Shown here in pieces: positions 31,907 to 64,000 of a DNA stretch of 64,000 nt. Below the pieces are notes generated by a model. The model was not told the DNA's origin, searched no databases, and saw only the letters and a list, made by a program, of their open reading frames with translations. The position numbers were made by a program, and so were the translations under genes. The number at the start of each line of letters is the position of its first letter. The first letter of the stretch is position 1. The DNA comes from Amoebidium appalachense (lineage: Eukaryota; Protista; Ichthyosporea): NCBI GenBank assembly GCA_963693365.1, contig CAVNZM010000014.1, positions 2,046,001-2,110,000 of the forward strand, written 5' to 3'.

Positions 31907-34900
31907 ATGGGCCTTCTGACTGTGGGGAAACCATTGCCGTGGTCGGAGGCTAAGAAACATGCAGATCATGTTCGTTCCAATGGCATCAAGCAGTTTCTTA
32001 ACATCTACAACAGACTGAAGGACCGTCATAATGACCAGCTGAAATTTGGAGAGGAGGTGAGTCTTACTTTCTTCTGATGTCTGCTATATTGTTCCTCATG
32101 TTCTACTCCCTGACAGTTAATATGCATATCCTCCCTCGACTGCCATTTACCCCTGCTGTTTTACATTGAACCTGATCATTTCTTTTGCTGCTCTTCCCGG
32201 TTCAATTCATCCCTTTTGTTAACGCTTTTCGAATTAGGGGTATTGTTCGTGTTTGGTGAGTGCGCTATGCGTCAGACGACTGAAACAGCTTACTTACATG
32301 ACCAATATGTAAGTGCTTCAAGCCCATACGGAAAAAATGCGTGCCCCCCTCCCCCCCCCCCTACCCCCCCTCCCCCCCCCCCCCCCACACACACACACAC
32401 ACACACACACACACACAGTTGGCTTCCCACACACACACACTTCCCCCCCCCACCTCCCCCTCCCCCCCCCCCCCCCCCCCCCCCCCCCCCCCCTCCCCCC
32501 TCCCCCCCCTTCCCCTCCCCCCTCCCCCCTCCCCCCTCCCCCTCCCCTCCGCCCGTTTTACTTGTCCATGCTGATCCCTCAATCTAGAACTGCCACACTG
32601 ACGTAAATATTTGCAGCTTGAGTTCATTGTGGTCACGTTTGACGATGAGAAGAAAACTGCGAGGGTGACCCTCCGTGTGTCTGATGTTCTTGCTGAGATA
32701 CAGGAGGAGCAGAGTCATCTTCCTCCTGGGTACCTATCCCCCTCCCCCTCCCCCCTCCCTCCCCCCACTCCCCACTCCCCAGCCCCTCCCCCCCCCCCCC
32801 CTCCCCTCCCTCCTCCACCCTTTTCCTCGGGCGGGGTCTTCGTTCGACACGTCATTTCAAATCCGCATGTTGTTCTCTCTTCTTTTGATTAGTTTTCTAA
32901 TTCGAAACCCCCCCCCCCCCCCCCCCCCCCCCCTTCCCCCCATCCCTCCCCCCCGGTCTCCCCGGGCCCTGCCTCCAACTCTCTGCCCCACCGAAACCCC
33001 CCATCCCTTCGTCTCTTTTCTGATAAGAAAACAAAAAACAGAGAAAGAAGTAAAAAATAGATTGGTGATGGTGTGTGCATGAGCGAGATAGGGTGGCAAG
33101 TTCAACTGGGTACCAGGATGCTTTTGTCTGCTCATTGCTTTCTCAGAGGGGAGGGGGGGGGGTCTTCTGGGTCTTCTTTTTCTTCTTCTTCTTTTTTTTT
33201 GCATTTATTTTGCCATCCCATGCTTTGGGACCAAATCATATGCTTGTTGATTGATCAACTACTTAGTATAAGGAATTAGGAATTGAAGGCGATTAAAGAC
33301 TAAAGGATTGGGCAAAAGTTGGGACATATTGGAAGGATGTGAACTATACTGTGTTGCGAGCAGAGGGGCATTGTTGGGTGGAGAGGCGGGGGGGGGAGGG
33401 GGGGCTAGGGAGTGGGGGGGGGAGGGGGGGGAGGGGGAGGGGGGGACGGGTAGCTACCATCCACCTCTGATACTGTACGCCTGCTCGATTCCAAAAAACC
33501 CCCCTCCCTCCCTCCCCCCCCCCCCCCCCCCCCCCAAATTTTTTTTTTTAACCCTCTTAACGCATACACCACTCCCCCCTCCCCCCCTCCCCCCTCTGAG
33601 GGTTGGCTTTGCTTTTTATGCATACTTTCTGTGTGGTTGGCACTCTGCATTTTGTTGTCCACTATGAATGTGTGCTTCGTATTCCTGTACACATTCTAAA
33701 CCTGAACGACGGTAAGGGGTCGAAGCTCAGATGCAATTGATTATTTGCACCCCCCCCCCCCCCCCCCCCCCCCCCACCTGCCCGCCCGCCCGCCCGAGGA
33801 TGGTCTCTGCTTATTTTGCATACTGCGCGCATCGCTGATGTTGCATACTCGAGTTTGCTTTTGCCTGTGTCATGCACCGTGTTTCTCTTCGTGTACGTGT
33901 ACTCCATACCATGTTCCGCATTCTAACACCCCCCCCTCCCCCCCCCCTTCCCCCTCTCTCCCCCCTCCCCCCTCCCCTCCCCCCTCCCCCCTCCCCTCCC
34001 CCCTCTCTCCCCCTTCCCCCCTCCCCCCTCCCGCCCTCCCTCCCTCCCTCCCCCCCTCCCCCCTCCCTCCTTCGTCCCCCCCCCCCCCCCCCACTCCATT
34101 TTTTATCAGCACGGTGGTGGAGTGTACGTGGCACCCCGAGTATGGCCGCTATATGATCGAAGGTATGTGATAGAAGGTGATCGAAGGTATGTGCTGCTAG
34201 TAGAAACTGGGCATCATCATTTCACTGCCTGCACACGCGAATTCCATCGGGGTGCATACACAACCAATCATTGCCTTATTGTTTTTGCTCCCCCCCCCCC
34301 CCCCCCCCCCTCCCCCCCCCTCTCCCCCCCTCTCCTCCCCCACCGCCACCCCATCTCCCTCTTTTCCCTTTCTCACAAACCTTACCCCACCCTATCTCTT
34401 GAACTCCCCCCCCCCCCCCCCCCCCCCGGGACCCCCTTCATTTTCATGGGTTTTAATTTGGACAATGTGAAAATGGTTCCTTCCCCTCTCCCACCCACTC
34501 CGCCTAAGACGAGGATTGGGCTTACAGATTGTTGTATAATGCTTGTGGCTTCAGTTGTAGTTTTAGTTTTAGTTTTAGTTATAGTTTTTTGCATCCTGTT
34601 ATATGGACTGCATCTCGTCTTCGTTGCTTATCTTTGCACCTCACACTGTACACTCCCCCCCCCCCCCCCCCCCCCCCCCCCCCCCCACACACACACACCC
34701 TTTCTTTTCTGGAGGCATAGGAACCCCGGGGATGATGGGCTCGGTTTAAGTGTCTTCTGCCTGCACGCTATTGTTTGATTTCGGGTTTTTCATTTTTTGT
34801 GACGTTTTGTATCTTGTCCTTTGGTGTCCTCCATATTTCCAACTTTCTAATGCATACATCCGCCACCCCCGCCCCTAATTCCTAACCCCTTGAACGGTAC

Positions 34901-37900
34901 CTTCTGCCTTCTCCACCACTATCGACCCCCAAGCATATGTTCGTGTCTGTGTCAGTCTATTTCATCACTACAATCCCCCCCCCCTCCCTCCTCCTCCTCC
35001 CTGCCCCCCCTCCCTCCGTCCCCTCCCCCTCCTGCGTATGATACATGTGCTCTGCGTGTGCTTTGCAAAATTTGCATTATGTTGTCCTTCGTGAATGTTT
35101 GGCTCTCTCTGTAACACATACCCCCCCTCCCCCTCCCCCCGCGCCGCCTCCAGGCCCATCCACACCCTCCTTCGAGTTATTCGATACCTTGCCCTTCCCT
35201 ATCTCTCTCTTCCGTTTCGATTCATCGTCGTTCACTCCGTATGGCTTAGCACAACATTCCCATTTGTGTTGCCTGTTCTTGCACGTTTTTTTTTGGAGGA
35301 GATGTGTGCAAGTGTTGTGTGTGTGTGTGTGTGCTGGGCTGGGAGGGGGGGAAGGAGGGTGGGGGGGGATAGGGAAGAGGGAGAAGGAGGGGGGAGAGGG
35401 AGAAGGAGGGGGGAGAGGGAGAAGGACGAGGGGGGGGGGAGGGGGGAGGGGGCAAAATGACACCATTATAATCAAACTGCGGGCAGGTGTGCCCGGTGGG
35501 CCGTACGGGTTTGCACTGTCCGAGTTGACTAAGATCGAGAGCAACATGCGGGGCAGGTGTGTGTGTGTGCGTGTGGGTGTGTGGGTGTGTGGGTGTGTGG
35601 TGGTGGGTGGTGGTGGTGGTTGGGGGGGGGGGGGGGGGGGGGGGGGGGGGAGAAGGGAAGAAGGGGGAGCATGTGACATAGTCTTGTGAATAAGGAGAGG
35701 GATGAGATAAAGTGAGCGTGTGTGTGTGCGTGTGCGTGTGCGTGCGTGCGTGCGTGTGTGTGTGTGTGTGTGTGTGTGTGTGATTGAGTGAGTGAGTGTG
35801 TGTGTGTGTGTGTGTGTAGGGAAAGGGGGGGGGGGGGGGGGAGGGGAGGCAGGCAACGATGAGGGTGGCAATATTCATCATCGATATCATGGACGAAGTT
35901 GGCCCCCCTTCCCCCCGCCAACCCCCTCTTCAAACACACACACACACACACACACACACACACACACACTTCATGAGCACACACGGCCATGCACAACACA
36001 TGAAGACATCAGCGCACACAGTGGGGTTTTCATGATCGAGATTATGCTTTGGGGTTTTCTTTCTTTGCACACAGACAGCTTTCCATTGTACCTGCATCCC
36101 CCCCCCCCCCCTCTCGCTCCCTCCCTGTTTATGTGTACTTCGTACTTCATGACACATCCAAACCCAACCCCCCCCCCCCCCCCCCCCTCCCCCCCCTTCC
36201 CTTCCCTTCTTTCTGGTCGAAACTCGAGTACTGTGGATGACTTCCCCCCCCCCTCCCCCCCCCCCCCCCCCCCCCCCCCCCCCCCCCCCTCTTTATGGGT
36301 TGCTTATGATGCATACACACAGTCTTTGTGTGAGCTTTGCAGAAACCTCTTTTCGTGGCCCGTCGTGAATGTGTGCTTTGTACTGGATGAGACAGTCTAA
36401 CCCCCCCCCCTCCCCCCTTCCCCCCCAACCTTAAATTTCTTATTTATTTACATTTTATTTTATTTTATACTAATTGCTGCTCTACGTGTGCGTACAGACG
36501 TGTAGACATTCAGAAACGTCTGGCACCAAATGAGGCTGTCGTCAGCATAACAAACTTCCCACGCCTCGGGTAAACCCCCCTCCCCCCCTCCCCCCCCCCC
36601 CCCCCCCCCCAAAAAAAAAAAAAAAAAAACCCCGACACACACCATGTCATTTGAGTCTTACTTCTTACTCCGCCTTCGTTGCCTTAATTAGAGCACTTTC
36701 TGATTCGTCCTTTGTATGTCTAAAACATCCGAAATCCCCCCCCCCCCCCCCCCCCCCTCCCCCCCCCCTCCCCCGCCCCACCCCGCCGTTCTCTCCCAAT
36801 CCCCTCAGGCCCAGACAACCCTGCCCCTTTTCATTTTTGTGCCCAAGGTTTTCTCGAGAGCAGTGTGACGTCCTCGTTTTGCAGAGATTTGATATTTTTT
36901 TTCCCAGGTCGAAAAAGGGGAGATTGTGCTTGGGTTAAGGATGTGACTACCCATTATCCAGACAGATGTGATATGAGGCCTAAATATCGCAACACTCACA
37001 CGTATGCCTGCATGTATGCAACCGGTTTACTGATTTATATGATTAACACACACGCGGGCACACGTACACGCACGGGCGCACGCACACACATGCACACACA
37101 CACACACACACACACACACACACACACACACACACACACACACGCACACACACACACCAACCCATACCCACACACCCGCACCAACCGAGTCCTCCCTGAG
37201 GATGTGCTCTGCTTATGACACATACTGTGCACATGGCTGATGTTGCATACTTGAATGTTTGCCTTTGCATGTGTCCTTCACCATGCATTCGTCGTGTATG
37301 CGTACTTCGTACCGTGTTCCGCATTTAAACCCCCCTCCCCCCCCCCCCCCCCCCCCCCCCCCCCACACACACACACACAGATGCCCAGCATTCACCGAGC
37401 CTCCCTACGAGCCATATGGGCCCATAGCCAAGTCTCTCTTTATCCCAGATGAAGCTATCAACCCCCACCCCCGCTTTGGGTAACCCCCCCCCCCCCCCTC
37501 CCCCCTCCCCCCTCTCCCTGGGGAAAAACAATGCATTTTGAATAGAAGCGGGACATCATAATCACATGAACGTACACGCACACACAGTGCACGTATGCAC
37601 ATGCACGCACACGCATACACACACACACACACACACACACACACATGCATGCGCGCGCACACACACACTCACGTACACTTACACATACACACACATACAC
37701 ACTCAACCAACCCCCCCCCCCCCCCCCCCCCCGCCCGCCCTCCTCCCTCAAACTTCCACAACCTTCCCTATCCCTAAGAAATAGCAATTACATGGGTTGT
37801 AAACCGGGCACGAGGGAGGAAGGGGAGTGGATTTGGAGCGGTGGTGGCGGCGGCGGCAGCACCGGGGGGGGGGGGGGGGGGGGGGGGGGGGGGCTTTATA

Positions 37901-63707: not shown

Positions 63708-64000
63708 GTGAGTTGGAGTCCCCCCCCCCCCCCCCCCCCCCCAAAACCCCTCCCTCTTCCACCACTCCCCCCCTCCCCCCCCTCCCCCCCTCCCCCCGTC
63801 CCCTCCTTCATCCCCGCCTGCCTGCCAAATCTTCATACATGAACGTGTCACCATGAGCGTGTCACCCCGTTCTAGTGTTGCATGCTATGTATGTGAGTTC
63901 CTTTTTTTCATGTCAACGTTTCATGCCACTTGAGTCGGCATCCGTACTTCATACTACGTACTCCATTCTCAGCCCCCCCCCCCCCCCCCCCCTTTCCCTC

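Follow-up and report, generated by a model that had tools for sequence, protein, structure and literature searches.

A dispersed repeat family at poly-C runs in introns of Amoebidium appalachense, with a possible origin in a Penelope-like retroelement

The 64,000-nucleotide stretch of the Amoebidium appalachense genome analyzed here (Ichthyosporea; GenBank assembly GCA_963693365.1, contig CAVNZM010000014.1, positions 2,046,001 to 2,110,000, forward strand; the window) has many introns and abounds in C, G, CA, and CT runs. Its plus strand carries three genes with modelled introns: one that we take, from its sequence motifs, to be GCLC, a YTP1-like gene (DUF2427), and a gene at 21.9 to 28.7 kb (7 approximate exons, some donors uncertain); one further intron, in FH, is cut by the window end. 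Here, we report an apparently undescribed family of short repeats in introns of GCLC, the YTP1-like gene, and FH, whose copies end in C-runs and are probably the truncated 3' part of a retroelement.

The original prediction had listed 15 copies of this repeat, and the dispersed family tied to poly-C proved to be real. A profile built from five seeds (copies at 33596, 33793, 37195, 41146, and 43152) recovered six non-seed copies at E values of 0.0014 or less and three weak matches (Table 1), and a reversed-window control run with a nine-seed profile returned zero matches at E ≤ 10. Eleven of the listed copies were clear, and a twelfth, at 36126, was newly found; those at 59579 (minus strand) and 63870 were weak, and those at 34725 and 48300 matched only each other (75% identity over 93 bp), were missed by the family profile at E ≤ 2, and are of unproven membership. 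Aligned parts of copies were 68 to 95% identical, many copies were broken, and the copies split into short-middle and long-middle subfamilies. Because the family occurs in public runs of four studies (platforms not on record), a sequencing artefact is unlikely as its origin.

Eleven window copies shared a common 3' end base to within about 2 nt. The tail ran into a C-run, as had been claimed, in all 15 plus-strand candidates, where the next 15 nt were 53 to 100% C; among other intronic 15-mers, 24% reach 53% C. The predicted lack of terminal structures also stood: across 15 copies, terminal inverted repeats were no longer than 6 nt at 80% (inverted repeats were internal only), poly-A tails were absent, and target-site duplications (TSDs) were indiscernible inside the C-runs. 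A miniature inverted-repeat transposable element or other DNA transposon of the terminal-inverted-repeat type was rejected for want of such repeats. The conserved head, which had been taken for the 5' end, turned out to be internal, as the element continues about 100 nt further 5', to 53120, and beyond; upstream of the head, positions 36215 to 36241 were 96% identical to 53186 to 53212.

Contigs of four public runs (X1 and X4, which may stem from this same DNA, and X5 and X9, both from one other study) were placed on 53121 to 53340 at ≥80%, where 3060, 1883, 136, and 12 contigs, respectively, were spread over the whole stretch; a run of another, fourth study (X7) contained the upstream part. 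Summed X1 depth was ~10^6, against 20 to 30 for long single-locus contigs, and is inflated by overlapping short contigs; summed depth gives no copy number and was not used as such; we infer that the family comprises thousands of copies or more. Behind 53338, at least 61 X1 and at least 45 X4 contigs continued as C-runs. The 5' entry points among the contigs listed were 53126, 53132, 53144, 53148, 53175, 53220/1, and 53231, and several entering contigs came from flanks ending in C-runs. Left of 53120, a shared consensus continued in at least 22 X1, at least 4 X5, and at least 2 X9 contigs, which indicates that the 53120 copy is itself 5'-truncated and that the true 5' end of the family lies further upstream; a 15-nt motif from upstream of 53120 was absent from the window when 3 mismatches were allowed. 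One fixed end with a ladder at the other is a trace of target-primed reverse transcription; the fixed 3' end and frequent 5' truncation found here are common to long and short interspersed elements (LINEs and SINEs) and so are not diagnostic. In collection scans, the head motif had 0 matches in metagenomes, 0 matches were found in viral and prokaryote contigs, and four loci with the upstream motif were rejected as chance matches with unrelated flanks. One contig in each of X1 and X4 joined an element copy (at 53191 to 53201) to short telomere-like TAGGGT repeats.

Past the tail of the 33596 copy, positions 33703 to 33747 aligned ungapped with 53171 to 53215 (29/45 identical; 0 of 3000 shuffles reached the score). 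Because this 45-nt extension matches the upstream part and stops at a C-run, 33596 to 33750 is a circularly permuted or partial-tandem unit. Three X1 contigs joined the tail back to 53181, 53222, or 53243 (one contig each at 80% likeness; weak). Partial head-to-tail tandems or 3' extensions, a trait of Penelope-like elements (PLEs), were thus seen in a few cases. A 104- to 105-nt internal periodicity of the 53120 copy was dropped for want of nhmmer support.

On 53118 to 53335, the best of three Rfam matches was Hammerhead_1 (RF00163; 15.5 bits against a gathering score of 34), whose 3' half was close to a type I hammerhead. No complete type I core was found in any copy (descriptor search; sequence from 53120 on), and a canonical retrozyme was rejected on that stretch. 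The 36218 copy had a palindromic loop III, which the available text of PMC4209133 gives as typical of PLE and retrozyme hammerheads. No tRNA, 5S, or 7SL head was detected in the available 210 nt (ARAGORN, 0 genes; Rfam), the true 5' end lying beyond, and a likeness to 5S rRNA and tRNA A/B boxes in the upstream part was dropped, as neither program supported it. Across 32 to 64 kb, the 150 of 211 Rfam matches listed were all below the gathering score and in low-complexity stretches; a single microRNA match on 33592 to 33752 was put down to chance.

The plus-strand copies lie in introns of plus-strand genes, as predicted, and all 15 intronic candidates were in sense orientation. Out of the 31 introns modelled in the three genes, 11 held candidates; the FH intron stands outside the 31. 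Sense-strand introns held 79 C-blocks against 27 G-blocks, and the sense bias had a P value of 0.012 per copy, or ~0.03 for 12 introns (by hand; the computed test took 13). Thirteen of the 14 copies of complete introns lay in the 3' half, with a median distance to the acceptor of 171 nt, compared with 535 nt in 64 other C-blocks (P = 2.6e-4), although in 14 of the 31 introns a C-run lay no more than 60 nt from the donor. All 14 ended 51 to 624 nt before the acceptor, which rules out an introner. Many copies had been said to end 50 to 200 nt before acceptors with C, CA, or A tracts only; such distances were frequent, and the path to the acceptor was AG-free in part of the copies: the next AG was the acceptor for 6/14 copies, against 9/64 other C-blocks (P = 0.02). 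The branch-point-like tail, too, was found in some copies and not in all, with YTRAY (a consensus drawn from this window alone) in the last 22 nt of 8/14. In their last 95 nt, five of nine copies had no AG and the others 1, 2, 3, and 5 (expected, 2.6 to 5.3); the antisense strand of these nine had 5 to 10. Every YTNAY of the AG-free zone lay inside a copy in 4 of the 11 host introns (32730 to 34109, 36570 to 37380, 47363 to 48508, and 54652 to 55561), the third of which depends on the uncertain 48262 copy.

Element-free introns had their own CTRAC at 164 to 184 nt from the acceptor. CTRAC motifs 164 to 194 nt from the acceptor were also seen outside copies in introns 44586 to 45029, 45151 to 45688, and 41033 to 41706, and the sequence from motif to acceptor was almost entirely CA, C, or A repeats.

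Table 1. Repeat copies, their parts, and other features of the window (E values from the five-seed profile unless stated)
Feature	Position	Strand	E value	Remarks
GCLC	31907..45888	+		18 GT-AG exons, open frame
Head-to-tail copy, short-middle	33596..33701	+	seed	GCLC intron 32730-34109
3' extension of 33596 copy	33702..33750	+		homologous to upstream part 53171-53215; circularly permuted/partial-tandem unit
Long-middle copy	33785..33927	+	seed	within C-run after 33596 unit; tail has sole YTNAY of AG-free zone, ~184 nt from acceptor
Possible sister-family copy	34722..34862	+		pairs with 48262; membership unproven
Degenerate copy	35032..35122	+	0.0014; 1e-5 in another profile search
Tail-only copy flanked by C-runs	36126..36163	+	3e-5; 4e-7 in another profile search	absent from earlier list
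Copy	36213..36400	+	1e-8 (at 36291)	upstream piece 36213-36243, enlarged internal C-run, then degenerate head-to-tail part
Long-middle copy	37185..37329	+	seed	95% identical to 43152 outside gaps; end 51 nt before acceptor; contains every YTNAY of its intron's AG-free zone
Short-middle copy	41130..41251	+	seed	sole copy in 5' half of its intron; intron has own CTAAC ~193 nt from acceptor
Duplicates of GCLC exon 14 start region	42602..42704, 42460..42558			in GCLC intron
Long-middle copy	43142..43271	+	seed	starts directly after C-run; intron has own CTAAT ~20 nt from acceptor
Degenerate tandem repeat array	43670..44470			in GCLC intron
YTP1-like (DUF2427)	46900..58050	+		9 GT-AG exons, open frame
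Possible sister-family copy	48262..48398	+		pairs with 34722; contains all YTNAY of AG-free zone
Decayed duplicates of exon 4 acceptor region	50490..50595, 51849..51952			in YTP1-like intron 49339-52077
Longest window copy, 210 nt	53120..53329	+	2.8e-17 (at 53223)	upstream part 53120-53221 plus head-to-tail part; 5' end truncated onto a C-run; YTP1-like intron 52240-53489
Imperfect inverted repeat	53149..53205	+		14-nt arms 53149-53162 / 53192-53205; folding z-score -0.1, ordinary
3' half of type I hammerhead-like motif	53182..53207	+		loop II, GAAAC, 4-nt loop, GUA; 5' core not intact
Copy with shortened head	55309..55404	+	1e-11	tail is only YTNAY in AG-free zone, ~158 nt from acceptor
Tail-only copy flanked by C-runs	56221..56248	+	0.03; 0.0015 with tail-only profile
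Intronic ~135-nt unit	57010..57330			three near-identical tandem copies, each with C-run of different length
Degenerate copy	57568..57666	+	4e-7	tail CTAAC, AGs between tail and acceptor
Minus-strand candidate	59441..59592	-	0.03; 0.012 in another profile search	head match only; between own-strand C-runs, downstream of minus-strand zinc-finger gene
FH-intron candidate	63826..63972	+	0.9 and 0.49, not significant	only tail 63938-63972 family-like
Nucleoside transporter, intronless	2214..3602	-		two best relatives EukProt proteins labelled Amoebidium parasiticum, 50% and 45% identity
Broken reverse transcriptase-like frames	8477..10927	+		end in AATAAA and A-run
RNase H-like remnant	19132..16971	-		PF00075 E 0.006, below cut-off; 3' part 75% identical to 6037-6228 (+)
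Intronless C2H2 zinc-finger genes	13014..14159; 14901..16360; 60790..61647	-; +; -		second frameshifted; third with Pfam match

The broken reverse transcriptase (RT)-like frames upstream of the repeats, whose motifs we take to be LINE-type, had no similarity to the C-run element, and their pieces at 8477 to 10742 had no Pfam or PDB match. The RNase H-like remnant and its partner at 6037 to 6228 appear, from their likeness, to be a second dispersed retroelement family. The three zinc-finger genes are possibly retrocopies, being intronless in an intron-rich region. The copies are patchily distributed: the part of the window in which the profiles detected none (1 to 33500) includes C/G-run-bearing introns of the gene at 21.9 to 28.7 kb.

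Out of the three explanations first put forward, the one with most support is a mobile element associated with poly-C (abundance, fixed 3' end, staggered 5' ends, and partial tandems). A SINE is a candidate identity only: no tRNA, 5S, or 7SL head was detected in the available part, which stops short of the true 5' end. We consider the copies to be probably, if by no wide measure, the truncated 3' part of a C-run-inserting retroelement, most likely a Penelope-like one. On abundance, end structure, permutation, and orientation and position in the window, all directly observed, this reading would build an RNA intermediate, a Penelope-type partner, selection, and use of branch points. An RT encoded elsewhere in the genome would nick the G-rich strand of a C-run and copy the element RNA from the RNA's 3' end. 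Copying would often stop early and the product join at the element's own short C-tracts, chiefly the internal one at ~53217 to 53223, which would yield the 100- to 140-nt pieces listed earlier; the frequent start at that tract would then reflect joining to the target C-run. Tandem templates could give the permuted unit at 33596 to 33750 and the tail-to-upstream contig joints.

Splicing would then filter which intronic copies survive. In this small sample, orientation and position are suggestive of such a filter with possible branch-point donation, and they suggest occasional donation by some tails rather than a dedicated cassette. Purifying selection is the simplest reading: a copy would do no harm directly ahead of the true acceptor but would be damaging at other sites or in inverted orientation. 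Copies would be tolerated near acceptors because their AG-poor sense strand, often with YTRAY and then a C tract at the end, resembles the native 3' region of an intron; the tail may serve as the branch point in some introns.

Several observations weigh against this account. No coding partner was found in the window or in the contigs, whose listed sequence reaches at most 30 nt beyond a copy, the RT-like remnants in the window share no sequence with the element, and no empty insertion site was seen. LINEs and SINEs would explain fixed 3' ends with 5' truncation just as well, and the hammerhead match was far below threshold (E 0.48), with no complete core in any copy. Summed contig depth showed no steady rise to the 3' end, peaking at 53225 to 53240 with the upstream part as deep as the tail, in a profile confounded by subfamily divergence and edge effects. 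No copy was detected with the profiles in positions 1 to 33500, despite many C/G runs. As to splicing, the copies share ancestry, so that their AG depletion is not nine independent observations; YTRAY tails were not significantly associated with location in the AG-free zone (5/6 against 3/8, P = 0.14), and the 57570 copy breaks that rule; only three genes supplied the counts of orientation and position, which include three uncertain copies.

The same C-run-targeting, 5'-truncated element could instead have been moved by a non-LTR (LINE) RT, as the 3' untranslated region of a microsatellite-specific LINE or as a SINE with its head upstream, an alternative that is possible if doubtful. Microsatellite-specific LINEs exist, any target-primed element could be as abundant and show one fixed 3' end with staggered 5' ends, and a Pol III head may lie upstream, as the family extends past 53120. 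The permuted unit, the tail-to-upstream joints, and the hammerhead half are, however, more typical of PLEs, neither ARAGORN nor Rfam detected a tRNA or 5S in the stretch available, and the RT-like remnants of the window have A-rich tail ends and no match to the element. Recombination between genomic C-runs and the C-tract of a small circular DNA, or of an element of tyrosine-recombinase type (Crypton, DIRS/Ngaro-like), would account for the C-rich flanks that many copies have at either end, the missing terminal inverted repeats, and the permuted monomer. Against it, there is a single 3' end but the 5' entry points number at least seven, which is not what a defined circle junction would give, and we hold this origin to be very improbable.

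Two further explanations place the function of the repeat in the intron itself. A primarily mobile branch-point cassette, spread or retained for the branch point that introns full of microsatellites require, would agree with the sense and 3'-proximal bias, the AG-poor body, and the four host introns whose AG-free-zone YTNAY motifs all lie inside a copy. Yet 20 of the 31 modelled introns have no copy, element-free introns have their own distant CTRAC, 8/14 copies lie outside the AG-free zone, four host introns have an independent CTRAY downstream, and the upstream part of more than 100 nt has no splicing look. What survives of the cassette proposed in the original prediction is a secondary effect, and as a primary explanation it is quite unlikely. 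It is somewhat less improbable, though still unlikely, that the family is an intron-adapted retroelement, which would insert in the C-rich tract before acceptors, supply a replacement branch point on an AG-free body, and so remain splice-neutral, its RNA perhaps being spliced free from host pre-mRNA without a promoter; thousands of introns would then splice via it. The third explanation first put forward, an intron-encoded small RNA family (small nucleolar RNA [snoRNA]-, microRNA-, or stable intronic sequence RNA-like), draws on the sense, intronic placement of pieces of ~100 to 140 nt, often 50 to 200 nt from the acceptor, and on a folding z-score below -2 in 1 of 7 sequences. It is not supported and is the most improbable of all: the RUGAUGA box was absent in 15/15 copies, the H box and ACA end were not consistent, the consensus fold of six copies had -0.31 kcal/mol and 0 compensatory pairs, and the copies are very abundant and broken at many points. 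A box C/D or H/ACA snoRNA was rejected for want of consistent boxes and of conserved hairpins.

No description of this family was found in the literature. Transposable elements make up ~50% in Amoebidium according to the available text of PMC11244446, in which "Penelope" and "SINE" are absent from the main text and two text supplements; its figures and repeat library could list the family as unclassified. C-run-targeting retroelements are known from green algae, and the present case would extend them, as a new family, to a further lineage, one of unicellular organisms closely related to animals. If the Penelope-like reading with its splicing filter is true, a transposable element that persists in introns by mimicking the sequence at their 3' side, and on occasion takes over as the branch point, offers a testable route by which introns could grow through transposons and microsatellite expansion while splicing stays intact. 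If the intron-adapted reading were true, thousands of introns of this genome would splice via transposon-derived branch points.

In microsatellite-targeting LINEs and their SINEs, the 3' end is fixed within the target repeat, the 5' end is truncated, and there is no clear TSD. The family shares all three traits; unlike them, it yielded no LINE ORF or Pol III head here, and its permutation and hammerhead half are not expected of microsatellite LINEs. Introners and antisense Alu elements, which donate polypyrimidine tracts, are mobile DNA with splice signals; unlike these, the copies here form no whole introns or new exons and would supply a branch point only. In human genes, AG-free zones mark distant branch points (available text of PMC1431707), and the copies resemble that system in a branch-point-like motif 100 to 200 nt before the acceptor with AG-free sequence between; they differ from those human exons in that the motif is the 3' end of a repeat copy.

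Non-LTR retrozymes, as portrayed in the available parts of PMC7229834, bioRxiv 10.64898/2026.07.22.740005, and PMC4209133, are likewise non-coding, of ~150- to 300-nt scale, and joined head to tail, and they share a type I hammerhead-like sequence with a short palindromic loop III and have a proposed PLE origin. Retrozymes carry a complete hammerhead per tandem unit, whereas the element here has the 3' half only, and they are reported to be depleted from Xenopus introns, whereas the copies here are mostly dispersed, intronic, and bound to C-runs.

The closest comparison is with the Chlamys PLEs. These have been reported from green algae, plants, and a slime mould, ichthyosporeans being unmentioned in the main text of PMC8557442, and they show no sense or acceptor-proximal bias in the available parts of that source; the element here, unlike Chlamys, was seen without an RT or GIY-YIG partner. 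The same parts describe Chlamys as inserting at (C)n and (CA)n targets, 5'-truncated, in partial tandems, mostly without canonical hammerheads, and with non-autonomous members, and PLE copies as often having a 30- to 40-bp tail, an optional feature that the available text of PMC11167929 describes as unique to PLEs. Insertion at (C)n or (CA)n was found in 15/15 plus-strand candidates, and in this, as in indiscernible TSDs, 5' truncation, partial tandems, a short 3' extension, and no canonical hammerhead, the family resembles the Chlamys PLEs and the non-autonomous MRC1 as they appear in the available text of PMC8557442.

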